This document shows positions 14,714 to 58,797 of a stretch of 64,000 nucleotides of DNA, in pieces (the stretch's first letter is position 1; each line of letters begins with the position of its first letter). A program made the position numbers and the translations under genes. The stretch lies in assembly GCA_028714455.1 (NCBI GenBank), contig JAQTMG010000004.1, forward strand, positions 5,425 through 69,424, read 5' to 3'. The DNA comes from Patescibacteria group bacterium (lineage in GTDB: Bacteria > Patescibacteriota > Patescibacteriia > CAIXNZ01). The notes beneath the pieces were generated by a model that saw only the letters and a program-made list of their open reading frames with translations, made no database searches and was not told the DNA's origin.

Positions 14714-15343
14714 ATGAATAATAGCGATAAAGGCGGCAATCAGTTTGAATGGAAAACCGGTTCGGCTTACGATTCGCTTTGGCATTCCTTTGCTGATTTT
14801 TTTGTGGAAATCGTCAAGGTCGTCATTATATCCCTAGCCATTATTATACCGATTAGATATTTCTTGATTCAGCCCTTTTATGTTAAGGGCGCTTCCATGG
14901 AACCGAATTTTCACGATCACGAATATCTGATAATCAATGAAATCGGCTACCGCCTCGAACAGCCCAGCCGAGGCGACGTGGTCGTTTTTCGTTATCCGAA
15001 AGATCCCAGTCAATATTTCATTAAGAGAATTATCGGTTTGCCCGGCGAGAAAGTGAAAATCAAAGACAATAAGGTCTATATCTACAATGAGAAATATCCC
15101 GGCGGTATCGCCTTGAATGAAGAAGTCTATCTGCCCGAAGATACGCAGACGACTTATTTCGGCAAGTCCGAATTTGATCTGGGGACAGATGAATATTTTG
15201 TCATGGGCGACAATCGAGAAGCGAGTCTGGATTCAAGAAGATTCGGTCCAGTGCCGCGCAGATTGATAATCGGCGACACCTGGGTCAGGGGCTGGCCCTT
15301 TGATAAAATCACTGTCTTTGGAAAGCCACAATATAATTTATAA
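14714..15343 (+). CDS. lepB: Signal peptidase I
   Basis: S26 boxes are present: GASMEP (catalytic Ser), RGDVVVF, IKRIIGLPGE (catalytic Lys), and YFVMGDNREASLDSR. Confidence 0.9.
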   Translation: MNNSDKGGNQFEWKTGSAYDSLWHSFADFFVEIVKVVIISLAIIIPIRYFLIQPFYVKGASMEPNFHDHEYLIINEIGYRLEQPSRGDVVVFRYPKDPSQYFIKRIIGLPGEKVKIKDNKVYIYNEKYPGGIALNEEVYLPEDTQTTYFGKSEFDLGTDEYFVMGDNREASLDSRRFGPVPRRLIIGDTWVRGWPFDKITVFGKPQYNL

Positions 15344-16720: not shown

Positions 16721-16744
16721 TAATAAGGAAATTTAGCTTAACTA

Positions 16745-16766
16745 AGCCCAAAAATGGGCTTTTGTT
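16745..16766 (+). terminator. Weak intrinsic terminator after hisS
   Basis: Hairpin AGCCC-AAAAAT-GGGCT followed by TTTGTT. Confidence 0.4.
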
Positions 16767-16783: not shown

Positions 16784-16812
16784 TTGACTTTATTCAGTTT
16801 TATTGCTATTAT
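16784..16812 (+). promoter_or_regulatory. Sigma70-type promoter for the rpsU operon: TTGACT, 17-bp spacer, TATTAT
   Basis: TTGACT at 16784-16789 and TATTAT at 16807-16812. A Shine-Dalgarno AAAGGAG lies upstream of the rpsU ATG. Confidence 0.5.
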
Positions 16813-16837: not shown

Positions 16838-17059
16838 ATGACTGAAGTTAAAAGAAGAAAGGGGGAAACATTTGAGAGCCTGCTTAGACGGTTTAATAAG
16901 CGGATTATTCAGGGTGGCAAGATTCTTCAGGCCAAGAAAATTAGGTTTTTAGAAAAAGAACCTAATAAGAATTTATCAAAAAAATTAGCCTTGAGAAGAC
17001 TAAAAATCAAGAATCAGAAAGAATATTTGAAAAAAATCGGTAAGCTGATCGAGGAATAA
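16838..17059 (+). CDS. rpsU: 30S ribosomal protein S21
   Basis: 73 aa and basic. LRRFNKRIIQGGKILQAKKIRFLEKE matches the bS21 family. Confidence 0.85.
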   Translation: MTEVKRRKGETFESLLRRFNKRIIQGGKILQAKKIRFLEKEPNKNLSKKLALRRLKIKNQKEYLKKIGKLIEE

Positions 17060-17069
17060 AAATTATAAA

Positions 17070-17510
17070 ATGCCAATTTTGGATAAAATTAATTCTGACT
17101 TCACGCGGGTATACAAAGAGCAAAAGCAAGATGCGGTTTCAACTTTGCGTCTACTTTTAGCTGCTTTTAAAAACGAACGCATCAAAAAAATGACCGATCT
17201 CAATGATGACGATGTCATAAAGATTATTAAGTCAGAGATAAAGAAAAGAAAAGAAGCGATAGAGGAATACGAAAAAGCAGGTAGAAAAGATTTGGCCGAA
17301 AAAGAAAAAAGAGAATTGGCTATCCTTAATCCCTATCTCCCGGAACAAATGGGTGAAGCGGAAATAAAAGTAGTAGTCGAGAAAATTATTAAAGAAGTCG
17401 GCGAGGGAGAAAATGAAGGAAAGATTATGGGGAGAGTGATGGCCGAATTAAAGGGGAAAGCTGATGGCACATTAGTTAAAAAAGTAGTTCAAGAGATATT
17501 AAAAAAATAA
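17070..17510 (+). CDS. GatB/YqeY domain protein
   Basis: 146 aa with the YqeY-like motif (LRLLLAAFKNERIKK...LNPYLPEQM). It follows rpsU, as it does in many bacteria. Confidence 0.8.
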   Translation: MPILDKINSDFTRVYKEQKQDAVSTLRLLLAAFKNERIKKMTDLNDDDVIKIIKSEIKKRKEAIEEYEKAGRKDLAEKEKRELAILNPYLPEQMGEAEIKVVVEKIIKEVGEGENEGKIMGRVMAELKGKADGTLVKKVVQEILKK

Positions 17511-17528: not shown

Positions 17529-19298
17529 ATGCTCAAGTCATTTACAAAGGAAATGAAATATAAAAAAACTGCCAAGGCACTGAAAATAGTTGTTTTGATT
17601 TTGGCGGTTTTTTTGTTTGCCCAAATCGCCCAGGCAGCCAATCTTGAGGTGGGTTTAAATTACGCTACGGCCACGGGGCTGGGAACACAAGACATCAGAG
17701 TCACCATTGCCAATGTTATCAGGGCATTTTTGGGTCTGCTTGGCCTATTGGCTATTGCCGTCCTGCTTTATGGCGGTTATGTCTGGATGACGGCTGCCGG
17801 TAATGAGGAAAAAGTGAAAAAGGCGAAACAGATTTTGATAAACGGAGTAATTGGATTATTGATAATTCTTTCGGCTTACGGAATCGCTTCGTTCATAATC
17901 GGTTCAATCCTGGGAGGCGGCGGAGCCGGCGGCGGCGGTGGCGAAGGAGCAGTTCCACCTGGCGGAGGCGGTGGTGCTCTCGGAGCTGGAATTATCGAGA
18001 GTCATTATCCTGGCAGAAATGCCACGGGCATACCTCGCAATACTAGCATAGTCATTACTTTTAAGGAGCCGATGGATGTAAACAGCCTGGAAACGGCCGG
18101 CGAAATAAATTCAGCAAATGTAAAAGTTCATCCGAGTGCAAGCTCGACTAATGTCGTTGACATTAGCGCCCATCATACGCAGGATTTGAAAACCTTTGTT
18201 TATAAGCCGACGAATTTGCTTGGCGAGGCTGGCTCCAACACAACTTATGTCATTGAGCTCTCCAATGCGATAAAAAAATCTGACGGCAGCAATGCGTTTG
18301 GGCTGGAAGGCTACAATTGGCAGTTTGAAATTTCAACTTTAGTGGATAACACTCCGCCCCAAATTATCGGGATTATTCCAGTTCCTGGTACGGCCACCTA
18401 TCCCAGAAATACAGTGGTGCAAATAAATTTTAGCGAGCCGATTAATCCGATGACGATTCGCGGGAAAAGCGATTCTTATAACATCATCAGCGTGAAAAAC
18501 GGACAAGCTGTAGTGGCTGGCGAATTTTTTTACGGCAACCAATATCAGACCGTTGAATTTGTAACCAATGACTTGTGCGGAAAAAATAGCTGTGGCGGCA
18601 ATGTTTACTGCCTGCCCGGGCCTGCTTCACTATCAGTTTTGGTAAAAGCGGCCACCATTGATAACTCGGGGAAGGCGAATTTTGGAGCCAACGGATATGA
18701 TGGAATTGTGGACATGGCTGACAATTCTTTGGATGGCAACGGAAACAACAAATCAGAAGGTCCGCAATCTCAAACTGCCAAACTACCATTTGACGCAAAT
18801 AATCCTGGTCCGCTGACGCAAGGCGACGATTACACCTGGAGTTTCAGTACAAGCAGCGTTATTGATTTGATTCCGCCAGAAATAATAAATTATTCCCCAG
18901 ACGCTAATAGCAGCGGAGTCAGTCCTTTGGGTGATTTTTTGGTGACGTTTTCTAAAATAATGATGGCCACGACCCTAAAACCGGGCAGCGGTTATGGCGA
19001 CGGGCTAAATTATATTACCCTGACGCAGCCCCAGAATCTGCCAGTCACCGGCTATTGGATTTCAAGCACAAACAATTTTGGAAATAACCAGACGACGGCT
19101 TCAATCGGCCACTCGACTCTTTTTGAGAATTCTAATTATGGATTAAGTTTAGGTTCTGGCTTGAAAGATATTACACAAAATTGTTATTCTCCCTGCTCGG
19201 GACCTAATTGTGTTAGAGTACCGACTTCAACCCCGGGCCAATATCAGCAAGGTTCGCCGTGGCAGGGAACTTATCCCTCGTGTAATCTAGGACAATAA
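17529..19298 (+). CDS. Secreted protein with an N-terminal T4SS-pilin/VirB2-like hairpin domain, a Gly-rich linker and Ig-like domains
   Basis: A signal peptide is followed by two hydrophobic helices (NVIRAFLGLLGLLAIAVLLYGG...GVIGLLIILSAYGIASFIIG), then a poly-Gly stretch, then beta-rich repeats. The N-terminal domain is paralogous to that of the next ORF. Confidence 0.55.
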   Translation: MLKSFTKEMKYKKTAKALKIVVLILAVFLFAQIAQAANLEVGLNYATATGLGTQDIRVTIANVIRAFLGLLGLLAIAVLLYGGYVWMTAAGNEEKVKKAKQILINGVIGLLIILSAYGIASFIIGSILGGGGAGGGGGEGAVPPGGGGGALGAGIIESHYPGRNATGIPRNTSIVITFKEPMDVNSLETAGEINSANVKVHPSASSTNVVDISAHHTQDLKTFVYKPTNLLGEAGSNTTYVIELSNAIKKSDGSNAFGLEGYNWQFEISTLVDNTPPQIIGIIPVPGTATYPRNTVVQINFSEPINPMTIRGKSDSYNIISVKNGQAVVAGEFFYGNQYQTVEFVTNDLCGKNSCGGNVYCLPGPASLSVLVKAATIDNSGKANFGANGYDGIVDMADNSLDGNGNNKSEGPQSQTAKLPFDANNPGPLTQGDDYTWSFSTSSVIDLIPPEIINYSPDANSSGVSPLGDFLVTFSKIMMATTLKPGSGYGDGLNYITLTQPQNLPVTGYWISSTNNFGNNQTTASIGHSTLFENSNYGLSLGSGLKDITQNCYSPCSGPNCVRVPTSTPGQYQQGSPWQGTYPSCNLGQ

Positions 19299-19321
19299 GT
19301 TGAAAGTTTATAAAGTTTGAT

Positions 19322-22300
19322 ATGAATAAGAATTGGCGAAAAATTTTACTTTTAATCCCCATAATTTTGTTGGGAATGTTTGTGTTTGCCAATTTTGTTA
19401 GCGCGGCAACATTAGAAATCGGATTGAATTATGCCGGTGGCACCGGACTCGGTTCAACTGACATTCGCATAACAATTGCCAATGTCATTCGGGCATTTTT
19501 GGGACTCTTGGGTATTGTGGCCATAGCCATGATTTTGTATGGTGCTGTGATTTTTATGACTGCCCAGGGCGTACCGGAAAAAATTGACAAGGCCAAGAAA
19601 ATTTTAATCGCCGCCGTGATTGGTTTAGTTATTATTTTGTCGGCTTTTGCCATAGCCAGTTTTATTATAGGTAGAATTCTTGAGGCAACGGGACCAGGCG
19701 GCGGAGGTGACGGAGGCGGCGGCGGTGGAGGTGGCGGAGGAACGCCACCACCAACTTTTGGTTATTGTCAGGATCCAGATGTGGCGAGCGCAGGTCCCTA
19801 TATTTGTCGTTTAGCTCCCGCAGCCGGAGAAAGCGGTTCTTTCGTTACAATCTACGGAGGAAAATTTGATTCTTACGATTCAAATAATAGTAAGGTCGTG
19901 TTTAGTAAGGATGGCGCTGACACCGACGCTGTCATCGCCCTGTGTAACGGTAATCCCTCGTGGTCAGACAGTACCATTGTAATTGAAGTTCCTAATTTAA
20001 CAGATCTTGGTGATTACGACCTCGCTGTTATCACCTCAAATGGCAGTAGTAATGATAAACCAACTGGCACATCAATAGCACCGAACAATAGATTCACTTT
20101 GCAATCAGGCAACCCCGGGCCCGGAATCGCTTGTATGATGCCAAACGAAGGCAATGAAACAACCAGCGTTGAAGTTTATGGCAAGCGTTTTGGGGCTGCG
20201 GCTGGAGTCTTAAAATTTCAAAACAACGTATCAGCAGAAACTTCTACTTGGAGCGATATTCACATAACAAGCGCTGTACCGGCCGGAGCTCAAAGCGGCG
20301 AAGTTTTTGTTTATAATTCCAATAATGTTAAAAGCGATAACGGTTATAATTTTACCGTGACCTGCGGTGGTAATAACGATTGCTCAATTTCTAAATGCTG
20401 TCTTGGCCAATCCTGTGTTGCGGCAGGTTATTGCGCTCCAAATGTGGGAGAAAATTGCGATACTGATGCGGCGCTTGCCGGTTGTCAGGCGGGTGGTTGT
20501 ACAACGGGTTTATTTTGTGACCCCAATAATAATTGTACTTGCCAACCGCGCGGGGTTGGCTCGCCCTGCAGTTTAAGCGCAACTAGCTGTCAGGCAGATA
20601 ACACATTGTGCGGTTCCGGTCTTTATTGTTCAGCCTCAAGTTGTACTTGCCAGAATCTCCCCTCAATAACAAAAGTTGATCCCGATAATGGCGCACCAGG
20701 AAACTATGTAACAATTTTTGGCAGCGGTTTTGGAAATTCAGAAGGGCAGGTCTTTTTTGCCTCGACAAGAGCATCTTTGCCGACTGGCTGTGGCGCGGCC
20801 CAATTATGGACTGACAATCAGGTAGTCGTAGAAGTACCTAATGAGGCTACAAGCGGAAAGATAAGATTGGTTACAGCTGACAGCCACGAAGCGCTTTCGC
20901 CATCAGATTTTACTGTTAATGATACTGTCAGGCCATCGCTTTGCGGAGTAAATCCTAATTCCGGAAAATTTGGCGAGGCCATAACTTTAAACGGCAAGAA
21001 TTTTGGCAGTTCTATTTCTGACGCTTTAATCGGGGGGATTGATTTTAACAACAAGAGCGGCTGGACGTGGGCTGATGATTTAATTGGCAATCTGACTGTG
21101 CCCAATATTCAGCCAGCAACTTTGTCCGCACAAGTTAAGGTTGGAAATAATTTTAGCAACTCTTTAAATTTTTCTGTTTTGAGCACAGTAGGCGCACCCA
21201 AAATTGATTACATAGATCCAACGACTGGACGAGTTGGTCAATACATCACAATTTTTGGCAGCGGCTTTGGCGTTGAAGCGGGTACTGTCTATTTTCAAAA
21301 TAATTCGGCCGAGCCGAATTATAAAAATTGGGCCAAGGCCGACACTAATTTTCCCCAAGAATGTCTGGCCGCCGGATTTTGGCGTGACAGCAGCATCACC
21401 GTGAAAGTGCCGAGCGGGACAATCGAGAGCGGCAAGATAGTGGTTGAGGCAAAAAGCGGCGTCAGCAGCAACACTGCGGATTTTAGTTCTTGTACAAATT
21501 GCGCGTTGAGACCGGGCATATGCGCGGTTATTCCCAATCAAGCACCGGCTAATACTCAAAATATTTCAATCTTGGGCGATAACTTTGGCGACTATAACGC
21601 GCCAAACAGCAAGATATTATTTTGGAATAATCAGGCAAGTTCCGATAACCTTCAATCATTTTGGACTAATAATAAAGTAAGTTCTGTCACAGTTCCGGCC
21701 AATGCCACAACCGGCCCTTTGCAATTGGTTAATAGCGCGGGTATAAAAAGCAACCAGGTAAATTTCACTGTCTCGGATTGTCGCGTAAATTCTGGCATTT
21801 GCACCCAGGGACAAATTTGCTGTCAGACAGACGGTATTTGCAAAACAGCCTCCGAATGCTCGGGAGCAGCCGCCCAGACCTGCAGTTATGACTTTTCTTT
21901 TACGACTGGCAGATTGCCGGCCGGGCCGCCGCAGGTAATTGAAGATTTTGCTTGCGAGACCGATACCCAGAGTCCTTCGCCTTGGAGAAATTCAACCGGA
22001 AATTGCAAAAACGCGGGTATCGGAGCCAGATTCAATCAGCCGATGATTTTCAGCTCGCTGACAAGCGCTTTTGTGATTCAAGACTGCACAAACGCAGGCG
22101 GCAATTATGATACGACAAAATGCGGAAATCAAATAAGCGCCGGCTCCTTTACGACCACAAGCGGTGAAACAGAAAGTGGTTTCACGTTTTTCCCCTCCAG
22201 CGGCTGGGCAGTGGGGCATTGGTATAGGGTTAATTTGTTGAGCCAATATCTTAAATCAGAAGAGGGAGTAAACCTTGATGGTGACCGCGACGGCTTGGCA

Positions 22301-22726
22301 GGCGGCGACTATGGCTGGTTTTTCCAGATAGATCCAAACGGTGTGGATTGTCAGCCAAGCAGCGTCCTAGTCACGCCAGCCGAACCAAATCCCATAATTT
22401 TAACCTCGCTAAATAAGGCACAGGAATATCAAGGCAGCGCCATGGCCGCGGGTTGTAATCTACTTAACTCAAATAATTTCCCCTGGCAGTGGAGCGTTGT
22501 AAGCATAGCCGATCCTTTTAATTCTGGCGTGGTTAGTCTCTCATCAACAAACACGGCGCGGACTACGGCTTCGCCCCTGGACCAGGGCCAGGTTTACGTA
22601 AAGCCGAAATTTATCCAAACGACTCTAGGAATCTTTACGATAGCGATAACGAACTTGATGTTGATTTGGGCAAGCCGCAGATTGACAGAATCTACCCGAC
22701 TGCCGGAATCGTCAGATCCGACGTAA
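19322..22726 (+). CDS. Large surface protein with the same pilin-like N-domain, a poly-Gly linker, IPT/TIG-like repeats and Cys-rich modules. The 3' end is out of frame; it probably continues into the next ORF.
   Basis: The N-terminus is about 60% identical to the preceding ORF. It has the stretch GGGGDGGGGGGGGGG and repeated (I/V)TI(F/Y)G.(G/N)FG motifs typical of IPT/TIG. The last ~40 residues read as low-complexity noise, which points to a frameshift. Confidence 0.55.
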   Translation: MNKNWRKILLLIPIILLGMFVFANFVSAATLEIGLNYAGGTGLGSTDIRITIANVIRAFLGLLGIVAIAMILYGAVIFMTAQGVPEKIDKAKKILIAAVIGLVIILSAFAIASFIIGRILEATGPGGGGDGGGGGGGGGGTPPPTFGYCQDPDVASAGPYICRLAPAAGESGSFVTIYGGKFDSYDSNNSKVVFSKDGADTDAVIALCNGNPSWSDSTIVIEVPNLTDLGDYDLAVITSNGSSNDKPTGTSIAPNNRFTLQSGNPGPGIACMMPNEGNETTSVEVYGKRFGAAAGVLKFQNNVSAETSTWSDIHITSAVPAGAQSGEVFVYNSNNVKSDNGYNFTVTCGGNNDCSISKCCLGQSCVAAGYCAPNVGENCDTDAALAGCQAGGCTTGLFCDPNNNCTCQPRGVGSPCSLSATSCQADNTLCGSGLYCSASSCTCQNLPSITKVDPDNGAPGNYVTIFGSGFGNSEGQVFFASTRASLPTGCGAAQLWTDNQVVVEVPNEATSGKIRLVTADSHEALSPSDFTVNDTVRPSLCGVNPNSGKFGEAITLNGKNFGSSISDALIGGIDFNNKSGWTWADDLIGNLTVPNIQPATLSAQVKVGNNFSNSLNFSVLSTVGAPKIDYIDPTTGRVGQYITIFGSGFGVEAGTVYFQNNSAEPNYKNWAKADTNFPQECLAAGFWRDSSITVKVPSGTIESGKIVVEAKSGVSSNTADFSSCTNCALRPGICAVIPNQAPANTQNISILGDNFGDYNAPNSKILFWNNQASSDNLQSFWTNNKVSSVTVPANATTGPLQLVNSAGIKSNQVNFTVSDCRVNSGICTQGQICCQTDGICKTASECSGAAAQTCSYDFSFTTGRLPAGPPQVIEDFACETDTQSPSPWRNSTGNCKNAGIGARFNQPMIFSSLTSAFVIQDCTNAGGNYDTTKCGNQISAGSFTTTSGETESGFTFFPSSGWAVGHWYRVNLLSQYLKSEEGVNLDGDRDGLAGGDYGWFFQIDPNGVDCQPSSVLVTPAEPNPIILTSLNKAQEYQGSAMAAGCNLLNSNNFPWQWSVVSIADPFNSGVVSLSSTNTARTTASPLDQGQVYVKPKFIQTTLGIFTIAITNLMLIWASRRLTESTRLPESSDPT

Positions 22727-25700
22727 CCACAAACATAACCATTTACGGCAAAAATTTCGGCGCCATTAAGGGCGAGACAAGAGTTCTGTTTGCCGCTCCT
22801 CCCTATAAAGAAGCGGAATTAGTCGATTGTAAAAATAATTGGTCAGACACTATTATAATGATAAAAGCGCCAGTCGCGGTTTTGCCGCTAAACATGAACA
22901 CGGCGTCTTTTAAAATATCAAAACCAGCCAAGGGTGATTCCAATTCGGTTATTTTTAAAAGGGATGATAGCAAAATTTATCCCTTCCTTTGCTCGCTTGA
23001 TCCGAGTCATGGCCTGAAAGGGGATGCTCTAGTTGCCACAGGCACAAATTTTGGCAATTCAAATGTGAGCGTTGTTAATGGTAAGACTTATAATTTACAG
23101 AGTAATGTTGATTTTGTATTTTCACAAAACCTCGGGGACGATGCTATTGTTTCCCCGGATAATATTAAAAGTTGGACCACTACAGCGCTTAACTTTTTAA
23201 CTCCCGATAATAATATAAATTCGGCCAGCGCTAATGTGAGTGTTCAAATTAATCCCTCGGCTTATCCTTATATTGATACAAACAAAAACGGAATCTGGAA
23301 TGCTGGTGAAACATTTTTTAACACTCAAACCGGCAGAGAAAATGACGGAAGTTACAATCCGGGTGCTCAATTTAACAGCAATGATTTGCCTTTTGATTTT
23401 AATCCCGTGATTACTTCGGTAACCCCTGATAATGGACCCAATAAATCATGGATTACGATAACCGGTTACAATTTTGGCAAGACGGCAGGAACCGTTTGTT
23501 TTGATTCAACCTGTGCCGCTTATTTTCCGCCGTTACCTTGCAAAAACAATTGGTCAAATACTCAAATCATTGTGGCGGTTCCTGATAATCTTTCCCTCGG
23601 AGGAATTCAGCTCTCCATTAAAACCACTAAAAATCTGCAGAGTAATTTCGTGAATTTTACCGTGAACGCGAATCCTCTCGCGCCCGGTATCTGCGATATC
23701 ACTCCGGCCGTCAATTATATTGGTTATTATCCATACATTTACGGCACAAGATTTGGAGACACGCAGGGAGCGAGTCAGGTGATTTTTAACAGCAATAAAT
23801 CTTCGGCTATTTATTATAGTCCCCCCGGCTGGACTGACACTTATTTGAGGCCGCGTATTGAAGTAGGCTCGACAAGTGGTTTTGCGTATGTCAGTAAAAA
23901 GGTGCAAGTCGGTCAGGCCTGCGTCGGCTTTAGTATTGGTTCTTTTTGTCCTTCGGGGCAATACAGTCCAATCTACCAAACGTTATTAAGTAATCCTTTC
24001 TTTGTTACTATTTTACAAAATCCGCCGCCTCCAAGTTCGGGAACAGGCGCAAAATGTACTTCAGACGCCGAGTGTCAGCAAAATAATCCCAACTGTTTAA
24101 GTAAATGCGTGGAAGGTATTTGTGAACCTTATATAGCAGATTTTTCTCCAAAGCAGGGACCTTTGGGCACTTGGGTTACGATAAACGGTTGCCACTTTGG
24201 TTGCGCCAAAGGAAACGTATATTTTACGGGTCTTAAACAATCAAATTATACCAATAACGAGACAGCCTTCTTTGATTTTAAAAACAACACCAACGATGTC
24301 TCTGGTCACGACAACAATGTTACTCCCATTAATTCCGTAACTGGTGCTATTGATAATTCTATACTGAAAGATGGTTATGTTGACTTGAACGGAACCAATC
24401 AATGCTTAATTTCAAATTACAACTGCACAGTCGCCAACCCCTGTTTTAATTCTGGGAGCGCTGATGGAGTTGACGGGATAACCGTAGCGGCCTGGATAAA
24501 AATACCGGAACAGCCCACTGGTAATTACGTAATCGCTTCGCAGGGCGGCGGTAATTATGGCGGTTATGATTTCTGGGACTTATTCGTTAGCTCTGATCGT
24601 AGACTTTATATTTATCTTAATAATTATCCCACGGCAAGTCTTCAGGCGGGAACGGCAGCCTTAACTATCCCCCTAAACACTTGGGTGCATGTGGCCGCGG
24701 TAGCCTGGACCGATGTCTCTAAAAATACCACCTACTTAAGAGTTTATATTAATGGGGTAGAGCACACTTTAAATATCAACAGCCTGAATGCCATCGCCTT
24801 GCCACAGACTCGAATTAATCCTCTACTAATCGGAGCGATCTCCTGGTTTACCCCGTCGTTATTTGGACAGACCTATTATAAAAAAGATTTGTTTAAAGGG
24901 CAGATTGATGATGTCAGGTTTTATAACCGCCCCCTATCGCCCGATGATGTTAAGAGAATAAATGACTTTGGTAATGAAAATGTCAACGGCGGTCTTGGTT
25001 ATAATGTCTTGGGCCTGCAGCCCGGTAATGCCAATTGTACTTTCTGGAATTGTTCGGCTAACGGGTTCAATGATCAGATAACTATTGAAGTGCCGAACAA
25101 AAATACCGAAACGACAAATGACGACGCGCATACCGGACCGATTGAGGTGGTAACCGGCGATAAGCTGGTCGAAAATACTTCCCATTTGGCTTCAGGCAAT
25201 TTTACCGTGAACGCCGATTCGTTGCCGCCCAACATCTGCAAAGTGGAACCCGGCCTCGGTTCCGCCGGTCAGATAGTCAAGATTTTCGGAGATAATCTAA
25301 AATTTTCAGATTTTGTCAGTTTAATCCCCAAGACCATTTTGGGCTTTCTTGACGAGCCGTATCTGGACTTGAACAATAATTTTTCATTTGATAACGGCGA
25401 AAATTACATCGACATTAACAACAACGGACAATATGACACCAGCACCTCGGCTTCGGCCCCGATAAAATCGGCCTTTACTTTTTCCATAGATTCTTCGCTT
25501 TACATCACAAGTTCCGAACAAGGCGGCTGTCCGGATAATTACAGCAATCCCACAAACGGCGTTGATTCCGATAAGACTCTTTGTTTTAAGGTGCCTGCTG
25601 GAGCGGCAGGTGAAGGACAGCCAGATCTGACTGCTAAAAATTCAGTCAGCGTCAAGAGAAATAACTCGACGAGCAATGATTTGGATTTCTCGGTTAATTT

Positions 25701-26805
25701 TCCAAGCGGCAGCACAGCTGACGCGCTAAGAGTGGAATCAACCATACCCGCGGCAGATCAAGCCAATTTTTGCAGAAACGGTTTATCTAATATTTATTTC
25801 GATAGCTTGGTCGATCCGAAAACGATCACAAAAACAAATTTTTCTCTGGAGTGCAGCACAACACCGCTGGGTTATGAAAATAAAAGCGGCTGGAAAAAGG
25901 GTTTGGCGTTTTTTAAAAATATTTTCGGCAAATTATTGGGTACAGACAGCTCTGCTTTAGCCGCCAATAAATGTCCAAGCGATTTTAGTCTAAATGATTA
26001 TGCTCTTAACTCTATTGTCTATCAGGGAAAAACAGTTGTCACTGTTTCTCCCAACGAATTATTGGATGCCGGGACCGTTTTTCAGGTAACGATTAATGGC
26101 GGCGATAGCGGCGTGAAAAAGATTAATGGGGCAAAACTTGAAGTAGAGAAATATGTTTTTAAATTTGAGACTGCTGGCGATCCTAATCTCGGCGACGCCG
26201 AGACCAACGGCATCTGTCAGGTTGATAATATTTTCGTCTTTGTCGCGAATACGGCAGACACCAATGCCGAAGATTTGAGAGAAAATTACACGGATTTATT
26301 CACTTGCGCCGGCGACAACTGCCAAACAAGCGTGGACTTTGATCAGAGCAGCCTTGCGGGTAACCAGCACAGATATCACGCGGTCGCCAAATCAATCGGC
26401 GGCGTAACAATTAGGTCCAATTATACCTGGTCCAGATCAGACGATTTGGATCCCAGACGCGCTTTGAGTTTCCACGAAGTTGACAGCAGCGGAGAAAACG
26501 CAGACACAAATTCCGACCAAAATAAATTCACCAACACCAGCGGCCAGGTTTATGTTACCAACGCGCCCATTTCGGAGACGGTTTCAAAATTAATTATTCA
26601 GGCCCAGGCCGAGGGTGTCAGTAGCAATGTCAAACAACGAGACTTTACAGTTTACCTGTTACTCTGCAGAAATCCCTGGCCCTCGCTCGACCAGAGGACT
26701 TTTCCGGAAGCTCAAATCAACGCTTATAATTTCGGGACCTGGTATTGCCGCGACGCGCCGCCTGGCTTTAACGAGGATTTGCCGGCCGCCAAAATTATCC
26801 AATAA
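22666..26805 (+). CDS. IPT/TIG-repeat surface protein lacking its own signal peptide; likely the C-terminal continuation of the 19322-22726 ORF
   Basis: It begins at a TTG in a region that stays open for >100 nt upstream in this frame. There is no signal peptide. IPT-like repeats (ITIYGKNFG, ITITGYNFG, KIFGDNL) continue. Confidence 0.5.
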   Translation: MGKPQIDRIYPTAGIVRSDVTTNITIYGKNFGAIKGETRVLFAAPPYKEAELVDCKNNWSDTIIMIKAPVAVLPLNMNTASFKISKPAKGDSNSVIFKRDDSKIYPFLCSLDPSHGLKGDALVATGTNFGNSNVSVVNGKTYNLQSNVDFVFSQNLGDDAIVSPDNIKSWTTTALNFLTPDNNINSASANVSVQINPSAYPYIDTNKNGIWNAGETFFNTQTGRENDGSYNPGAQFNSNDLPFDFNPVITSVTPDNGPNKSWITITGYNFGKTAGTVCFDSTCAAYFPPLPCKNNWSNTQIIVAVPDNLSLGGIQLSIKTTKNLQSNFVNFTVNANPLAPGICDITPAVNYIGYYPYIYGTRFGDTQGASQVIFNSNKSSAIYYSPPGWTDTYLRPRIEVGSTSGFAYVSKKVQVGQACVGFSIGSFCPSGQYSPIYQTLLSNPFFVTILQNPPPPSSGTGAKCTSDAECQQNNPNCLSKCVEGICEPYIADFSPKQGPLGTWVTINGCHFGCAKGNVYFTGLKQSNYTNNETAFFDFKNNTNDVSGHDNNVTPINSVTGAIDNSILKDGYVDLNGTNQCLISNYNCTVANPCFNSGSADGVDGITVAAWIKIPEQPTGNYVIASQGGGNYGGYDFWDLFVSSDRRLYIYLNNYPTASLQAGTAALTIPLNTWVHVAAVAWTDVSKNTTYLRVYINGVEHTLNINSLNAIALPQTRINPLLIGAISWFTPSLFGQTYYKKDLFKGQIDDVRFYNRPLSPDDVKRINDFGNENVNGGLGYNVLGLQPGNANCTFWNCSANGFNDQITIEVPNKNTETTNDDAHTGPIEVVTGDKLVENTSHLASGNFTVNADSLPPNICKVEPGLGSAGQIVKIFGDNLKFSDFVSLIPKTILGFLDEPYLDLNNNFSFDNGENYIDINNNGQYDTSTSASAPIKSAFTFSIDSSLYITSSEQGGCPDNYSNPTNGVDSDKTLCFKVPAGAAGEGQPDLTAKNSVSVKRNNSTSNDLDFSVNFPSGSTADALRVESTIPAADQANFCRNGLSNIYFDSLVDPKTITKTNFSLECSTTPLGYENKSGWKKGLAFFKNIFGKLLGTDSSALAANKCPSDFSLNDYALNSIVYQGKTVVTVSPNELLDAGTVFQVTINGGDSGVKKINGAKLEVEKYVFKFETAGDPNLGDAETNGICQVDNIFVFVANTADTNAEDLRENYTDLFTCAGDNCQTSVDFDQSSLAGNQHRYHAVAKSIGGVTIRSNYTWSRSDDLDPRRALSFHEVDSSGENADTNSDQNKFTNTSGQVYVTNAPISETVSKLIIQAQAEGVSSNVKQRDFTVYLLLCRNPWPSLDQRTFPEAQINAYNFGTWYCRDAPPGFNEDLPAAKIIQ

Positions 26806-26830: not shown

Positions 26831-29800
26831 ATGAAAAATACTGGTAAAAATTTAATAATCTTTTTCCTCGCATTAGCTGTTATAATATTCCCTAATTTGT
26901 CTAAGGCCCAGGCGGCCGATGACCTTTTGCACGAATATATTTTACCAATCAGCTCTTATCAGGATTTGGGCACTGTCGTAGCCAAGAAAGGCGCCGAATG
27001 CGATACGGCCATTCTTTACGATAATCTGGGCACAGGCAGTCCGACAAACTGTGCCGCCTTGAGTCAGAGCGGCGACATAAAAAAAGCCGACAGCGTAAAT
27101 AATTATTTAGAGGTAGATAAACCGGCTGTCGTCTCTTACAGATTTAACATTAAAGAAGCGGGCAACTATATTTTTAAAATTCAGACGGCAAACCTGGCTG
27201 ACAATTTTTCAAATTTTTCCAATCAAGAAATCGATTATCTGCTGCAAGGCGCGAATATCCGTAATTTTATTAAGGAGAACGACGGCCTGGATTCTTCTTT
27301 CGACCAGTACGCCCTGGCCAGAAGTTTAATTTTCAGCGTCTACGTGAACGGCCAGAGAAAAGGCTATGTCATCGTGCCCGACACTGATTTTGCCACGCAG
27401 ATACAGACGGGGATAGTTGAGATAGGTAATCTCCAGCCCGGCGATCAGCAGATTGAATTGCGGTTTTTAAATGACTACAATCTGGATTTTTCCGGTTTGA
27501 CCTTGCCGGATTATTTTAATAATTTTTTAAACGTCGATTTGGATAGAAATAAAATTCTTGACGTAAACCCGATAATTTTCACCGCAGCCGTTGACAGCAT
27601 TTTGCCGATTGAAGACGTAATCGGCATCCGCATTTATTCCAATAACGAGAATAAATATCCAGCGGATTGGTATCGGGATAACGTTTTAAACCCCAACTCG
27701 AACCCGGAGAATGTAATGGTTGATGGTTATCAGGGCGTTTTAGATGGACGAACTGTCTATGTTTCCGCCGCCAATGTCGATATTAATACAGGCAAGATTT
27801 ATACCAATATTTATGTAATTGCTTATAATGAGAACGCCGCGCCGGCCACCACGGAGATATATAAATTAATGCTGGCGAATTTTAATTTTAATACAAATCT
27901 GCAGGTTTTTTATCCCGGGGATTATGTCAAGAAAAAAGATCAATTGAGAAGAGATACAATCAGAAAGGCGGACGTCAACCGTTTGAATCAGCTGCTGGCG
28001 TCTTACCGCCAAAAGAACGGCAGCTTCCCGGCGATGAGCGCGGGAACGTTCGTGCCTGGCCATACGATCTCGACCTGGCCTTCCTGGCAGGCGAATTTAG
28101 GAAACGCGCTTGGTTTTGGTCTGCCCGCGGACCCGTTGAATTATATGTCAACGACGATTTTTCAAAATGATTGCACCGGCAGCAATTCTACTTCTGAAAA
28201 TTGCGCCAATGTCTGCAGTAGGGATGCGAGCAGTAATCCCTTGACCGGTTGTCCGGCCAATCAGCAATGCGTTGATGGACAGTTTTGCTCAATCTGTCCG
28301 CCGGGTTATGACGCCCTAACGTGCTGGGATCAAAATAATTTGAGATTTGCTTTCGAAACCTATAATTCGCAAAATTGCAGCAACACAAATCTGCTGGGCG
28401 CTTTTAATCTCGGAGGAAGCGTGCCGTGTTCTTATGATGGCTCTTTTGTCTACCAATATACCGCCCTAAACGGGGGCAAGGCGTATCTTTTGAATTATCG
28501 CCTGGAATATCAGACCAGCGAAACCTGTCGGCCAGGGCAGTGTTTCAATTCGGAGAACGGCCAGTGTTACAATCCAGGCCAATGCGTTGATCCAATAGCG
28601 CATTCATATTGTCTGGCGGGCAGTCTGCTTTCTTCCTGCGGCGACGGTTTTCTGCAATCTGATTGCGGAGAAGAGTGCGACGGCAAATTGGGTTCTTCCA
28701 ATCTTTGCGCCGACAGCTTTGGCAATCACAATTTTTATACTCCGGTTTCCGGCACCTGCAGCTCGGATTGCAAAATTCAATCAAATACCGGTTTAACGCC
28801 GGCTGATTGCGGCGGTTATTGCGGCGACGCCATTATCCAAAGAGATCACGGAGAGACGTGCGATAATACGAGCGCTTATTGCGTAAACTGTCGCTGTCTT
28901 CCCAATTGCCAGGGCAGGTGCGGAGGCGCAGATGACGGCTGCGGAGGCAAATGTACGGCCAATTGCGGCTCTGGGCAAGTTTGCAGTACAAACGGCAATT
29001 GCGTGCCGCAAGATTGTTCGTTGGTTTGCTCGGGGAAATGCGGCATAGTCAGCACCTGCGACTGCGGCGGCTGCGTCACTGGTCAGGATTGCGTTAAAAA
29101 TACCTGCACAGTTTCGGCTGAACCCCCTTGTGTAGTTAATTGCAATGGCAAAAAGTGCGGTACTGATAATTGCGGCAATGAAAATGGCTGCGGTATTTGC
29201 GGCATCGGCAAAAAATGCGATGGGGCGAGCGGCCAGTGCGTTAGCGATTGCGCGTCGACATGCGTACCCTATAATTTAGAATCAAAAATTTACCCCTGCG
29301 GTTATGATGGCTGCACCAACCGATATGGCTGTTTCTATTTAACCGAAGAAAATAAATATAACACAACTAATACGGCAACTGATTGCCAAACAGATTACAA
29401 ACTGGGCGGTTCGGCTTGGACCTGCAATCAATTTTTGGGTCGCTGTACCTGCGAGCTGTCGCCGACCGATCCTCGCTCCTGCCTAGACAGGTGCTCTGGC
29501 TATGACGGCTGCGGACGCATCTGCGGCGTGTCCGGTCAATGTAAGGAAGGGCCATGCAATACCAACGGCCTAGTGAAACCGGGCGCTGACAAATCAACAT
29601 TAAATAGATGTTTAACTTGTTCCAATTATTGTCAGATCTGGAAGGGCGAGGGAGGCAGTTCAAGTTGTTACGATTATAAGATAGTTACCGTACCTCCATT
29701 TGATTTTGTTGATACCGACGGGACCGGTTATCCAGTGACTGTTTACGTACCAAATAATATAGTAAGCACGGGTATTAGATTTGTCGATAAAGATGACAGA

Positions 29801-30751
29801 ATTAAATTTTTTCCATATTTTGTCGACGTGAACGGTCTGGATGCCGTTAAATCTAACGCGCCGGCGGGTTATTCAAAAGTGCTGGTAAAAATACCGCCCG
29901 GTACTCAAGAGATGCACATGATTTATAATGTCAATCAAAATGTCGCGGCGCGAATAGCCGCCGGAGGTTCAGCCGATGCGCCTCCGGAGACGAATTCGGC
30001 TACTTCAGTATTTGAGCTTTGGGATGATTTTAACGGCACCCTTGATACTTCAAAGTGGACTATACAACAAGGTGATGGTGCTAGCGTAAGAATTGAAGGT
30101 GGTAAGCTACTTATATCGGGGCAAGATACAAGCGCAAATAATGATAGGTTTTTTGGGGTCACAAACGGCAAGGTAATGCAAAATAACACCTTGGTAAAAG
30201 TAGATTTTGCCGAGAGCACTGCTGATGGATTTGTATCTGGTAATTGGAAATCAACAATGGGTTTAAGTGGGTTGAGTCTTAATGCTGAAAGGCAGGAATT
30301 TTGCTGTTGGAATGGCCATGGGCTTTGCGGAGGGGCAATTCAGTGCTGGACCAGCGTAGTTAATAATGGTGGTAGCACTAATCGCTATGTTTCTCGCTGG
30401 GCCTCTTCTGGCGGTTGCGGAGGTAAGCCGACGTGGTGGGTCTGTGAAAAGAAATCTAATTTTCAGAATTATACTGGCCTTCAAGCCGCGACAATATACA
30501 CGATGCTTGATAATAACGGCAAATTAGTTTATAGCGAAAAAAATTTAAACGATCCCTCCAGAACGGTTGTGGATTCACCAGGTTCCCAGACCGTCAGTTT
30601 GCTATTTGGGCCCGATGAATATGGCAGACAGTTTAGCGCCAGTTTTGATAATTTAGTCGCCAGAAAATATATAGAATCAGAACCCGTGGCTACATTAAGC
30701 AATCCCTCGGGCACGAATTGTCCCTCGCAGACCGCGATTCCGTTACCTTGA
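26831..30751 (+). CDS. Secreted protein with Cys-rich repeats (Myxococcus cysteine-rich repeat/DUF4215-like) and a C-terminal concanavalin-A-like lectin/LamG-like domain
   Basis: Has a signal peptide. Repeats CGDGFLQSDCGEECDG and CGDAIIQRDHGETCDN are present, with many CxxxC modules. The C-terminus has FELWDDFNGTLDTSKWT, as in LamG or glycoside-hydrolase-16-like beta-sandwiches. Confidence 0.55.
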   Translation: MKNTGKNLIIFFLALAVIIFPNLSKAQAADDLLHEYILPISSYQDLGTVVAKKGAECDTAILYDNLGTGSPTNCAALSQSGDIKKADSVNNYLEVDKPAVVSYRFNIKEAGNYIFKIQTANLADNFSNFSNQEIDYLLQGANIRNFIKENDGLDSSFDQYALARSLIFSVYVNGQRKGYVIVPDTDFATQIQTGIVEIGNLQPGDQQIELRFLNDYNLDFSGLTLPDYFNNFLNVDLDRNKILDVNPIIFTAAVDSILPIEDVIGIRIYSNNENKYPADWYRDNVLNPNSNPENVMVDGYQGVLDGRTVYVSAANVDINTGKIYTNIYVIAYNENAAPATTEIYKLMLANFNFNTNLQVFYPGDYVKKKDQLRRDTIRKADVNRLNQLLASYRQKNGSFPAMSAGTFVPGHTISTWPSWQANLGNALGFGLPADPLNYMSTTIFQNDCTGSNSTSENCANVCSRDASSNPLTGCPANQQCVDGQFCSICPPGYDALTCWDQNNLRFAFETYNSQNCSNTNLLGAFNLGGSVPCSYDGSFVYQYTALNGGKAYLLNYRLEYQTSETCRPGQCFNSENGQCYNPGQCVDPIAHSYCLAGSLLSSCGDGFLQSDCGEECDGKLGSSNLCADSFGNHNFYTPVSGTCSSDCKIQSNTGLTPADCGGYCGDAIIQRDHGETCDNTSAYCVNCRCLPNCQGRCGGADDGCGGKCTANCGSGQVCSTNGNCVPQDCSLVCSGKCGIVSTCDCGGCVTGQDCVKNTCTVSAEPPCVVNCNGKKCGTDNCGNENGCGICGIGKKCDGASGQCVSDCASTCVPYNLESKIYPCGYDGCTNRYGCFYLTEENKYNTTNTATDCQTDYKLGGSAWTCNQFLGRCTCELSPTDPRSCLDRCSGYDGCGRICGVSGQCKEGPCNTNGLVKPGADKSTLNRCLTCSNYCQIWKGEGGSSSCYDYKIVTVPPFDFVDTDGTGYPVTVYVPNNIVSTGIRFVDKDDRIKFFPYFVDVNGLDAVKSNAPAGYSKVLVKIPPGTQEMHMIYNVNQNVAARIAAGGSADAPPETNSATSVFELWDDFNGTLDTSKWTIQQGDGASVRIEGGKLLISGQDTSANNDRFFGVTNGKVMQNNTLVKVDFAESTADGFVSGNWKSTMGLSGLSLNAERQEFCCWNGHGLCGGAIQCWTSVVNNGGSTNRYVSRWASSGGCGGKPTWWVCEKKSNFQNYTGLQAATIYTMLDNNGKLVYSEKNLNDPSRTVVDSPGSQTVSLLFGPDEYGRQFSASFDNLVARKYIESEPVATLSNPSGTNCPSQTAIPLP

Positions 30752-30789: not shown

Positions 30790-31788
30790 ATGGCAATGTT
30801 TAACCAGCCAAACCAACAAGGAAATTCCGGACAAGCGCCGGCTCCGACCAGAATAGCGCCGCCGCCGATTCGCCCGCCCATGCCGTCTCGAGAACCGGAA
30901 GATATTTTCGCCAATATTCCCTCACGGCAGACAGGGTCAACGGGAGCATCACAGACGCCGACACCGCCCAGAAGAGGGGGTCGTAGGATTGCTTTAGTTT
31001 TTATTATTTTTATCATCATCATTTTGCTGGTGGTGGGCGGAGCACTGGCTTATTTAAGTTTTGTCAGACAACCCGCTGCTCCAGTCGTTAATCTGCCCAA
31101 CATAAACGTTCCGCTAGTAAATCAGAATGCCAATGTGAATCAAAACGTGAATTTGAATGCGCCGATCAATTCGAATGTCAACACGAATGTCAATCAACCG
31201 GTCGCGCCGAGCCTGGGTTACGCAATCGGAATAGATTCGGATAATGATGGCCTGACTAACATCGAAGAAACGCTTTATGGCACGGAGCCAAATAATCCAG
31301 ACACTGATAAGGATGGTTTTTCCGACGGCAGCGAGCTAATCAATCTTTATGACCCGACAAAAGGAGCCGGGGCTTTGTTGGCCAATTCAACGCTAATCAA
31401 GATTTATACAAATTCTAAATTCACTCATTCGATTTTTTATCCGGCGAAATGGTCTGCGGAGGCAAATTCAGATGGTACGCAGACAGTCTTTCAGTCAAGC
31501 GATGAAGAAAACATTAAGGTCAGCGTTCAGAATAATCCCGCCAAGGTCACGCTTTATGAATTTGTGCTGTCCAAAAATCCGACGGCTGATTTGACTCAAT
31601 ACACCAAGACGACCACAAAAGGCGGGTATGACGATCTCGTTAGCCCTGACAAATTGACGCATTTTGTCACGCGGGAAAGCCAAATCGACAAGGTCTATGT
31701 CATTACTTATACTCTGGGCGCCGAAGAGGTGGCTTATTATCTCTCGACTCTACAAATGATGGTTAACAGCTTTAAACTTACTAAATAA
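30790..31788 (+). CDS. Membrane-anchored protein with Pro-rich N-terminus, Asn/Val-rich linker and acidic DxDxDG (thrombospondin-type-3-like) motifs; first of two tandem paralogs
   Basis: Single transmembrane helix. The linker is NVNQNVNLNAPINSNVNTNVNQ. The motif is DSDNDGLTNIEETLYGTEPNNPDTDKDGFSDGSE. Confidence 0.5.
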   Translation: MAMFNQPNQQGNSGQAPAPTRIAPPPIRPPMPSREPEDIFANIPSRQTGSTGASQTPTPPRRGGRRIALVFIIFIIIILLVVGGALAYLSFVRQPAAPVVNLPNINVPLVNQNANVNQNVNLNAPINSNVNTNVNQPVAPSLGYAIGIDSDNDGLTNIEETLYGTEPNNPDTDKDGFSDGSELINLYDPTKGAGALLANSTLIKIYTNSKFTHSIFYPAKWSAEANSDGTQTVFQSSDEENIKVSVQNNPAKVTLYEFVLSKNPTADLTQYTKTTTKGGYDDLVSPDKLTHFVTRESQIDKVYVITYTLGAEEVAYYLSTLQMMVNSFKLTK

Positions 31789-31814
31789 TTTTTAGCGCAA
31801 GCAATCATAAAATT

Positions 31815-32816
31815 ATGGCCGATCAAAACTTACAGCAGGAAATTTCCAAACCCAAACTCGAACCGTACGAAATCCACACCATGCCAACAAAATATCTGAA
31901 AGCCAATTCTCCCCAAAAAGGCGGTCTTGGCCGAACCATCATTATAATATTGGCAGTTGTTGTTTTTCTCGGTTTGGCGGGTTTTGGCGCCTATTATTTC
32001 TTTACTTTCCTGCAAGGCCAGACCGGCGCACCAGCCATTACAAATTTATCGACGGTTAATTTGAACACGAATGTTAACCAAACGCCGCTCAATGTCAACA
32101 CAGCGCCGACAAATACCGGCCTGGGTTTTGGCAACGAGAATTTAAACTTGGCCACGAACGTTAATCTTTTGCCGGAAGTGAATCTCAACATAAACGCAGG
32201 AATCAATACAAATTCGGCAGGTACCGCGGCGGTTACTTATTTCAGCAGTCTGGATTCGGATAGAGATGGGTTGACTGACGTCGAGGAAGATCTTTACGGC
32301 ACAGAAGTAAATAAGCCGGACACAGACGAGGATGGGTTTATTGATGGTTCTGAATTGGTAAATCTTTTCAACCCCAAAGCGGGTAACGGTTCGCTCTTGG
32401 TTACTTCGGGTCTCATCAACCCTTATGATAATCCGTCATTCAACTACGAAATTTTTTACCCGGCCAAGTGGCTGGCGCGCCCGACCGATCAGAGTTTGAG
32501 AGAAGTAATTTTCCAGTCAGCGACCGATGAATACGTCTCGGTCAGAGTGGCCGATAACGCCAGCAAACTCTCTCTGGTTGATTGGTATGTCAGTCAATTT
32601 GGCAGTGAAGATCTGGGCGCACTCACCCAAAACACTACAAAAAATGGGATGCAAGCGCTGCTCTCGGAGAATAAATTAACGTATTATATGTATTCCGATA
32701 AAACTCCTGATCTTGTTTATGTTATTTCTTATTTTATTGGCAACAGGACACAGGTGAATTTTTCGACCACCTTTCAGATGATGGCAAGCAGTTTCAAAAT
32801 AGTGCCAAAACCCTAG
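31815..32816 (+). CDS. Second tandem paralog of the membrane-anchored protein with DxDxDG motifs
   Basis: Same architecture as its neighbour. The motif is DSDRDGLTDVEEDLYGTEVNKPDTDEDGFIDGSE. Confidence 0.5.
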   Translation: MADQNLQQEISKPKLEPYEIHTMPTKYLKANSPQKGGLGRTIIIILAVVVFLGLAGFGAYYFFTFLQGQTGAPAITNLSTVNLNTNVNQTPLNVNTAPTNTGLGFGNENLNLATNVNLLPEVNLNINAGINTNSAGTAAVTYFSSLDSDRDGLTDVEEDLYGTEVNKPDTDEDGFIDGSELVNLFNPKAGNGSLLVTSGLINPYDNPSFNYEIFYPAKWLARPTDQSLREVIFQSATDEYVSVRVADNASKLSLVDWYVSQFGSEDLGALTQNTTKNGMQALLSENKLTYYMYSDKTPDLVYVISYFIGNRTQVNFSTTFQMMASSFKIVPKP

Positions 32817-45090: not shown

Positions 45091-45110
45091 CATAATTAAT
45101 TTTTCCAGCC

Positions 45111-51386: not shown

Positions 51387-51395
51387 AATTATTTA

Positions 51396-54377: not shown

Positions 54378-54379
54378 AT

Positions 54380-55687: not shown

Positions 55688-55688
55688 T

Positions 55689-56108: not shown

Positions 56109-56173
56109 TGAACCACTAAAATATAATCACTAAATACACGAAAATTTAGCGGTTGTTATAAAAAATAATTACT

Positions 56174-56830: not shown

Positions 56831-56839
56831 TATATTTTT

Positions 56840-58780: not shown

Positions 58781-58797
58781 TTATTAATAATTTAGAT

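Follow-up and report, generated by a model that had tools for sequence, protein, structure and literature searches.

We analysed a 64,000-nucleotide stretch of the genome of a Patescibacteria group bacterium (GenBank assembly GCA_028714455.1, contig JAQTMG010000004.1, positions 5,425 to 69,424 of the forward strand; hereafter the window), in which two neighbouring genes each join a short membrane hairpin, resembling the VirB2-type pilins of type IV secretion systems (T4SS), to a large extracellular part. The interval 17529-26805 holds three open reading frames (ORFs) on the + strand, designated A, B and C, and is followed by gene D. The original prediction had counted two ORFs in this interval; A and B are indeed consecutive, but a third, C, is present, and B and C are one broken gene (B+C). 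The features of the interval are listed below in window coordinates (aa, amino acids).

17529-19298, + strand: gene A, ORF of 589 aa
17529-17636, + strand: signal peptide of A (aa 1-36), n-region with net charge +6, ending AQA/A (predicted cleavage), hydrophobic over aa 12-41, helical over aa 12-36 in the model
17637-17912, + strand: VirB2-like hairpin of A (aa 37-128), made up of N-segment, helix 1 (aa 56-88), basic loop and helix 2 (aa 93-128)
17913-17978, + strand: Gly-rich linker of A (aa 129-150), pLDDT <50
17979-19298, + strand: extracellular part of A (aa 151-589), about 440 aa, three Big_5 Ig-like domains, 7 Cys
19322-22726, + strand: ORF B, 1134 aa
19322-19681, + strand: signal peptide (aa 1-28) and VirB2-like hairpin (aa 29-120) of B, PF18895 match, 71% identity to the A hairpin
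19682-19759, + strand: linker of B, EATGPGGGGDG10TPPP, read from the translation
19760-26805, + strand: extracellular part of B+C, with IPT/TIG repeats, Cys-rich modules, Laminin_G_3, Big_5 and a conserved C-terminal region; 71 Cys
about 22600-22604, + strand: frameshift splitting B+C, a 1-nt deletion (window GTAAAGCC against V-K-A-E in the orthologue)
22666-26805, + strand: ORF C, 1379 aa; its TTG start is artificial and it lacks a signal peptide

The N-termini of A and B are built alike, each running from a signal peptide through some 19 extracellular residues into a pair of long hydrophobic helices separated by a short basic loop. Their mature 92-aa segments align without gaps at 71% identity, and hydropathy analysis finds three hydrophobic segments in A and three in B. 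AlphaFold modelled the hairpin alone with helices of 33 and 37 residues (pLDDT 82.8) and full-length A with hairpin helices of 33 and 36 residues, a disordered linker and a confident all-beta extracellular part (pLDDT 82.9; pTM 0.72). Alignment, hydropathy and model thus agree with the earlier claim of a shared signal peptide and two hydrophobic helices, and what they describe is a signal peptide followed by helices of 33 and 36 residues, not a cleaved signal followed by a single stop-transfer segment. The net charges (signal n-region +6 or +3, mature N-segment -2, loop +2) fit the VirB2 topology, for which signal peptide cleavage, both ends of the hairpin facing outward and an extracellular stalk are predicted.

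Helix 2 leads into a Gly-rich linker in both proteins, with 17 Gly among 30 residues in A (longest run 5) and 16 among 32 in B (longest run 10); the run of 10-15 Gly that had been claimed for each is therefore found in B, whereas that of A is interrupted. Across 53 A orthologues the linker spans 17-25 aa (median 21) with 43% Gly and a conserved terminal GGGALGxGII, and B orthologues carry Pro-rich or Cys/Gly-rich linkers at the corresponding position.

The hairpin was compared with T4SS pilins through family profiles (Pfam cut-offs: PF18895 T4SS_pilin, 26.6 bits; PF04956 TrbC/VirB2, 27.9 bits). PF18895 matched A at 44.5 bits, B at 37.3 bits and the isolated A domain at 50.0 bits, all above the cut-off. 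PF04956 matched A below its cut-off (17.5 bits; E 0.0049) and 45 of 81 close family members at E ≤0.01; its cut-off is passed by the hairpins of the sister fusions P0307 (39.4 bits; product of the giant gene at the hisS-S21-yqeY locus of a second genome) and P0275 (30.7 bits). The best NCBIfam match was the mycoplasma integrative and conjugative element (ICE) family ‘Mbov_0395 pilin-like’, at 37.7 and 31.3 bits, below its cut-off of 40. We also built a profile of 36 true VirB2 proteins, seeded with an Agrobacterium tumefaciens sequence that is 98% identical to the database entry; hhalign aligned the hairpin family to it with 75.6% probability (E 2.4e-5) over 71 columns, collinearly from the mature N-terminus through both helices and including the W-M motif that ends helix 1. 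The suspected resemblance to TrbC/VirB2 or T4SS pilins is upheld by the PF18895 matches, the sister proteins and the hhalign alignment, and homology of the hairpin to VirB2-type pilins thus appears well supported at the profile level.

When the module alone is used as query, its closest relatives are stand-alone proteins of 117-135 aa with 52-65% identity (57-65% for those of 120-130 aa). All of these carry PF18895, some PF04956 too, and they end a few residues past helix 2. A and B+C depart from the mature size of a pilin (about 70-100 aa), extending 461 aa and about 2370 aa past helix 2, respectively, and both genes lie outside the T4SS gene cluster. The hallmarks of type IV pilins are likewise absent from the two proteins: in place of a class III signal peptide, prepilin-peptidase site and single helix, their signals end AQA or VSA and two helices follow, and no type IV pilus family was matched in the Pfam or NCBIfam scans of the window proteins.

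The hairpin is the most conserved part of A. Among the 53 A orthologues mean pairwise identity is 61% for the whole hairpin (helix 1, 64%; loop, 64%; helix 2, 65%), compared with 52% for the extracellular part and 37% for both the signal peptide and the linker. Co-variation between the two genes was assessed in 70 genomes (the window and 69 fetched loci with both genes). Within a genome, the A-type and B-type hairpins share 62.5% identity on average, and hairpins from different genomes share 48.1% (A-B), 49.2% (A-A) and 50.2% (B-B), which indicates joint evolution of the hairpin pair within each genome. Recent gene conversion was considered as the cause of this within-genome similarity and rejected: the A and B hairpins of the window are 71% identical as protein and 62% as DNA, the same codon encodes 31% of their identical residues, where codon usage predicts 34%, so that synonymous sites are random, and conversion is not general across the 69 genomes, in which the same-codon fraction has a median of 0.49 and never exceeds 0.8. 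We infer from conservation and co-variation in the sequences that the hairpin is under stronger constraint than a passive anchor would need and probably does more than anchor.

One related genome, GCA_975847985.1, holds both the orthologous fusion locus (L001) and a nine-gene array of stand-alone pilins (L007), the members of which are 23-53% identical to each other. A single member, P0036, shows 59-63% identity to the hairpins of the two larger fusion proteins of that genome and 50% to the hairpin of the 360-aa one, and 59-62% to the window hairpins. Arrays of 7-9 stand-alone pilin genes (L006 6715-12131; L007 6535-13012) directly follow a gene for an SBP_bac_1 solute-binding protein, and their neighbours are conserved (SpoIID, polysaccharide synthesis, DUF2079 and glycosyltransferase genes), with no VirB4 within 10 kb. 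Two further proteins, P0242 and P0243, carry up to eight tandem VirB2-like hairpins per chain, and at L088 (9925-16481) a protein with eight hairpins precedes a small pilin, a fusion of pilin and PKD (383 aa) and a PKD-rich protein of 718 aa.

The extracellular parts of A and B+C differ in size and content. An ectodomain of more than 1000 aa with IPT/TIG and Cys-rich modules had been proposed for both proteins; this describes B, whereas that of A comprises about 440 aa with three stretches of PF13205 Big_5 (E 1.2e-24) and no IPT/TIG domain in Pfam. The model of the A extracellular part is all-beta with pLDDT >90, and a structure search with it ranked two S-layer proteins, SbsC (E 1.4e-9) and Sap, ahead of other Ig-domain chains. 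SbsC and Sap matched with TM-scores of 0.13-0.16 and identities of 8-14%, and such low TM-scores are expected for flexible multi-domain rods. Within B+C, ORF B contributes five TIG stretches, Cys-rich modules and one Big_5 domain, and ORF C two TIG stretches, a Big_5 domain and a concanavalin-type, lectin-like Laminin_G_3 domain (about 24469-24954; E 1.3e-20). Extracellular fibrillar adhesins typically show such a mix of IPT/TIG repeats, lectin domain and cysteines (71 in B+C). Over its last ~360 aa, B+C shares 38-43% identity with the C-termini of giants that measure 3251-3771 aa, a degree of sequence conservation that suggests a distal functional domain; a sequence search of PDB with this C-terminal domain returned nothing useful. 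Neither LPXTG nor a hydrophobic stretch with basic tail was found at the C-termini (A ends YPSCNLGQ and B+C ends DLPAAKIIQ), and the Pfam scan of A, B and C gave no SLH or related wall-binding match.

B and C were assigned to one gene, of about 2494 aa once repaired and split by a 1-nt deletion, because the relative P0246 (2506 aa) aligns collinearly with both, covering B 1-1094 at 58% identity and C 1-1378 at 55%, and reads through the junction. Where the window has PLDQGQVYVK / AEIYPND, P0246 has PLDQGKDFVKAEIYPND, in which FVKAEIY is uninterrupted. Both halves are otherwise intact on either side of the deletion, which lies in or beside a short A run; the deletion stems from a mis-assembly or from a very recent mutation, and the same break is carried by the deposited protein P0241 (1134 aa). 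A programmed frameshift was considered and judged unlikely, GUA-AAG-CCG not being a known slippery motif.

The fusion is not peculiar to the window. A search with full-length A (whose own record is P0121, 100% identity) recovered at least 400 orthologues with the PF18895 + Big_5 architecture. The best 120 of them (481-936 aa; 39-57% identity) are nearly all annotated with PF18895 and PF13205, come from Uhrbacteria, Buchananbacteria, Falkowbacteria and Parcubacteria, and bear the public labels ‘Ig-like domain-containing protein’ or ‘hypothetical’. With the hairpin as query, an exhaustive profile search returned 33,822 cluster representatives at E ≤0.001 and 8,579 at ≤1e-10. Lengths for 143 of the best 150 hairpin relatives fell at or below 200 aa in 16, at 201-500 aa in 37, at 501-1000 aa in 37, at 1001-3000 aa in 28 and above 3000 aa in 25, the longest hairpin protein having 6860 aa; the hairpin sits at residues ~30-125. 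Ten mid-size relatives each join the hairpin with Big_5, TIG, Big_7 or GEVED.

The survey of other genomes that the original prediction had called for identified at least 278 species-representative genome stretches encoding a relative of A, a lower bound since the scan relied on two peptide patterns. From these we fetched 79 loci, labelled Uhr-, Falkow-, Buchanan-, Komeili- and Magasanikbacteria and Parcubacteria, of which 74 could be evaluated for upstream genes; many related records (L009, L013, L015 and others) are titled ‘uncultured Gammaproteobacteria bacterium’, a placeholder or mislabel, since their gene content and synteny are clearly Patescibacterial. S21/YqeY lies directly upstream in 58 of the 74 evaluable loci, and a second hairpin-bearing ORF follows within 1.5 kb in 65/70, with a median of 1843 aa and a maximum of 3450 aa where that ORF is complete. 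A is mostly single-copy, with 40-57% identity across several candidate phyla, and at least 70 related species retain the pair formed by an A-type and a B-type gene. The housekeeping neighbourhood recurs, in the order DprA...Pth-Der-LytR, signal peptidase-HisRS-S21-YqeY-[A]-[giant B]-two TSP3/EF-hand-like-YbeY-DgkA-FtsA-FtsZ. By orthologue numbers, species spread and the paired giant, the joining of hairpin and ectodomain is genuine and under selection. The architecture had been called unusual, which is true of the accessible literature, where it does not appear, but not of its frequency, which is that of a widespread conserved family.

The following features lie upstream of A and in the T4SS cluster of the window.

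16784-16812: best promoter-like site, by pattern match only, after a terminator-like hairpin (16744-16761) 3' of hisS
16838-17059, + strand: S21-like gene, from the translation; the orthologue has a weak PF01165 match
17070-17510, + strand: yqeY (PF09424, E 8.8e-43), ending 18 nt before A
55689-56108, + strand: T4SS core, PrgI/VirB3-like gene
56174-56830, + strand: T4SS core, TrsD-like gene
56840-58780, + strand: T4SS core, VirB4

A begins 18 nt past yqeY, which in turn follows the S21-like gene, as expected from the operon-like run after rpsU-yqeY noted earlier. The S21-like gene and yqeY probably share a transcription unit with A and B, and the promoter-like site after the terminator-like hairpin implies that this unit may start at rpsU. 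The earlier observation that the module does not adjoin the T4SS core also stands: PrgI/VirB3, TrsD and VirB4 (CD1110 family; 368 bits against a cut-off of 325) lie 25 kb downstream. The T4SS-like cluster (44434-59412) further includes a secreted protein of 2091 aa, a 435-aa protein without family match and a polytopic 993-aa VirB6-like candidate; its TrsD gene is separate from VirB4, and a ComFC-like gene (59393-60139) directly follows it. A PDB sequence search with the 2091-aa protein gave nothing useful. No stand-alone pilin was found in the window by searching six-frame ORFs of at least 40 aa with narrow and broad hairpin hidden Markov models (HMMs) and by scanning for small ORFs with multiple hydrophobic segments.

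The explanation that we favour, and to which we give roughly an even chance, is that A and B+C are VirB2-type pilins of modular build, in which the hairpin mediates co-assembly and the Ig-like and lectin stalks are displayed. Both proteins would enter the Sec pathway by their N-terminal signal peptides, with predicted cuts by signal peptidase I after AQA or VSA. Charges and model predict that the two helices are then inserted with their ends outside and the basic loop (+2) in the cytoplasm, as in VirB2. Helix 2 would serve as the export signal, placing the ~21-residue linker and the Ig-like, lectin-like and Cys-rich domains outside, a location that the 71 cysteines of B+C fit. Conservation and co-variation suggest that the hairpin keeps the packing surface of one stand-alone pilin type, in which case A, B+C and probably that stand-alone pilin would assemble as a membrane platform or a VirB2-type filament. 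Judging from the domain types, the stalks at the surface would most likely serve host-cell contact or form part of the outer envelope. The least supported step is the extraction of the hairpins into a pilus by the T4SS 25 kb away. F-pilin with peptides fused to its C-terminus presents them on the outside of the pilus, and in geometric terms a VirB2-type filament could therefore accommodate a C-terminal extension. That A and B+C are true subunits of such a T4SS-built filament, co-polymerising with the stand-alone pilin and decorating or capping it, is a narrower claim that we advance as a tentative possibility.

Several points weigh against co-assembly as pilins. An extension of 440 to ~2370 aa on every subunit would be too bulky for a tight filament, and only sparse or terminal incorporation is conceivable. 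No VirB4, TrsD, PrgI or VirB6-like gene occurs within 10 kb of the module in the 79 loci, the window has no pilin gene beside its T4SS core, and the arrays that hold the closest stand-alone pilins are not adjacent to virB4 either. Foldseek with the hairpin model returned only matches with E ≥3.7, to generic helical hairpins including ATP synthase subunit c, a search that is uninformative because a two-helix hairpin is too simple to discriminate; profile and single-sequence searches of PDB chains with the hairpin gave nothing meaningful. No VirB2-type pilus has been reported for any Patescibacterium (PMC12102498, PMC12857230, PMC11665869), and the label ‘pilin’ for the stand-alone Patescibacteria proteins is a prediction too. 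An old gene conversion, its synonymous trace since erased, could also account for the similarity of the hairpins within a genome. Finally, the extracellular part of A is well conserved and A lies among housekeeping genes, for which a structural envelope protein is a better fit than a fast-evolving, host-specific adhesin.

The strongest competitor, which we consider possible though doubtful, is that a VirB2-derived hairpin has been reused as a passive two-pass anchor in place of a sortase or lipid anchor, in which case the proteins would be ordinary tethered fibrils or adhesins with no link to pilins or T4SS. The consistent distance of the module from virB4 agrees with this, as do a linker that resembles a wall-spanning spacer and the presence of the hairpin at the head of proteins of very varied size (up to 6860 aa) and content (Big_5, TIG, Big_7, GEVED, PKD, Laminin_G). 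A mere anchor would, however, drift faster than the ectodomain, yet the hairpin is the best conserved part, including its cytoplasmic loop and extracellular N-segment; it is still 57-65% identical to one specific stand-alone pilin type, and the hairpins of the two genes co-vary by genome without recent gene conversion.

An envelope lattice is unlikely. Here A especially would be a housekeeping S-layer-like protein, forming a layer of Ig-domain chains held by the hairpin, and SbsC and Bacillus anthracis Sap are the top structural matches of the A model. A is, moreover, mostly single-copy and well conserved across candidate phyla between rpsU-yqeY and ftsA-ftsZ, and possibly co-transcribed with rpsU. 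The TM-scores of these matches are nevertheless low, the search returned Ig-domain chains of any kind, titin and receptor ectodomains among them, no S-layer anchoring domain was found in the Pfam scan, and a lattice would leave unexplained both the giant, length-variable partner gene and the need for a conserved pilin hairpin.

Less probable again, and in our estimate quite improbable, is a cleavable carrier, in which the hairpin would be a pro-region cut at the Gly-rich linker by an enzyme of the signal-peptidase type, so that a small pilin is produced and the secreted protein is released. In plasmid RP4, TrbC is trimmed by the S26 peptidase TraF; here helix 2, with its basic N-side and the small residues that follow, has the layout of a signal sequence, the stand-alone pilins end exactly at the start of the linker, and a conserved S26 signal peptidase gene lies four genes upstream. 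At 36 residues, however, helix 2 is far longer than the core of a cleavable signal peptide, and the only S26 gene in the window probably encodes the housekeeping enzyme. An artefact in which mis-assembly or a frameshift joined a small pilin gene to the gene downstream has a negligible chance, for although the same assembly does contain the B/C frameshift, two independent paralogues in the window carry the fusion in frame, and at least 400 orthologues from many assemblies and sequencing projects share it with a conserved linker length.

As an observation, the fusion family is robust and is a variant of the known VirB2-type pilins. Like the stand-alone Patescibacteria pilins (PF18895), its members have a signal peptide, an N-segment of the form LGLNYA..GLGTQDIR, two helices and a basic loop, and one pilin of the nine-gene array (P0036) belongs to the same subfamily as the fusion hairpins; unlike those pilins, which end at ~117-135 aa, the fusions form a separate conserved two-gene module in a housekeeping neighbourhood. 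They share with VirB2, TrbC and TraA a long signal peptide and two long hydrophobic helices that form a hairpin around a short cytoplasmic loop, and the profile alignment is collinear. Canonical VirB2, TrbC and TraA pilins are 7-10 kDa when mature, often cyclised or acetylated, and encoded in T4SS operons of double-membrane bacteria. A and B+C, in contrast, belong to a single-membrane host, their genes are unlinked to virB4, and their huge C-terminal extensions rule out cyclisation.

The chain of Ig-like beta domains in the A ectodomain recalls SbsC and Sap, which differ from A, with its membrane hairpin, in attaching through SLH or other wall-binding domains. A parallel for the overall architecture is offered by PilB and PilC of Streptococcus sanguinis, which combine a small polymerisation module with a bulky C-terminal adhesive module. 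They serve as minor subunits in a filament whose major pilin is plain (PMC8179133, PMC9934059), as A and B+C would if incorporated sparsely or terminally. These modular type IV pilins belong to an unrelated filament superfamily, so the parallel is one of analogy and not of membership.

By the same kind of analogy, A and B+C may resemble the VirB5 tip protein and PrgB of enterococcal pCF10 in being surface proteins that contact the target for a T4SS, although they show no sequence or domain similarity to either. Neither of these has a pilin hairpin: sortase attaches PrgB to the wall, and VirB5 is a soluble subunit of the tip. VirB2-like pilins are known in Patescibacteria, including arrays of 2-11 genes, and a survey that detected pilins there found no PrgB-like adhesin (PMC12102498). 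A pilin array is essential in the Saccharibacterium Southlakia epibionticum (PMC10633639), and reviews describe the Patescibacteria T4SS as essential in the one species tested and its role as wholly unknown (PMC11665869, PMC12857230). The fusions, by analogy, could be the missing PrgB-like adhesin of Patescibacteria. No description of pilin-ectodomain fusions was found in the accessible literature, which covers few subscription journals and in which absence is no proof.

VirB2-type pilins have been known as tiny proteins without appended domains, and here the module stands at the head of much longer proteins, from 570 to over 3400 aa within this locus family and up to 6860 aa among relatives. 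The family physically joins a pilin module to adhesin-type domains, which suggests a role for this module in Patescibacteria, namely anchoring or polymerising surface stalks for host contact, and it supplies an annotation for genes now labelled ‘Ig-like domain-containing protein’ or ‘hypothetical’. If A and B+C are true subunits of a VirB2-type filament, they would be the first ‘modular conjugative pilins’, and in single-membrane Patescibacteria; the essential Patescibacterial T4SS and the pilin arrays would then form a host-attachment organelle, with the fusions as the adhesin that surveys have missed.

Some further observations concern variants and neighbours of the module. At L003 (5774-11798; contig shared with L011), two A-type genes of 836 and 862 aa flank S21-YqeY and have 100% identical hairpins, which points to a recent duplication or conversion in that genome; the second of these genes also has Laminin_G_3. 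The S26 signal peptidase gene (window 14714-15343) is kept four genes upstream of the module in most related loci. Two adjacent paralogues of ~330 aa (window 30790-32816) have weak TSP3/EF-hand matches, and their position before ybeY is kept in many related loci. The gene that comes next after B+C is the following.

26831-30751, + strand: gene D, 25 nt after B+C and separate from it; product secreted and Cys-rich, 1306 aa, with a signal peptide but no hairpin

Gene D has no sequence similarity to the giants, its only Pfam match is a weak one to DUF2341, and a PDB sequence search with it gave nothing useful. Relatives of D lie downstream of the giant in 5 of the 79 related loci. D carries an internal motif, RRDTIRKADVNRLNQLLASYRQKNGSFP, which we take to resemble the conserved sequence at which the heads of type IV pilins begin in these bacteria.

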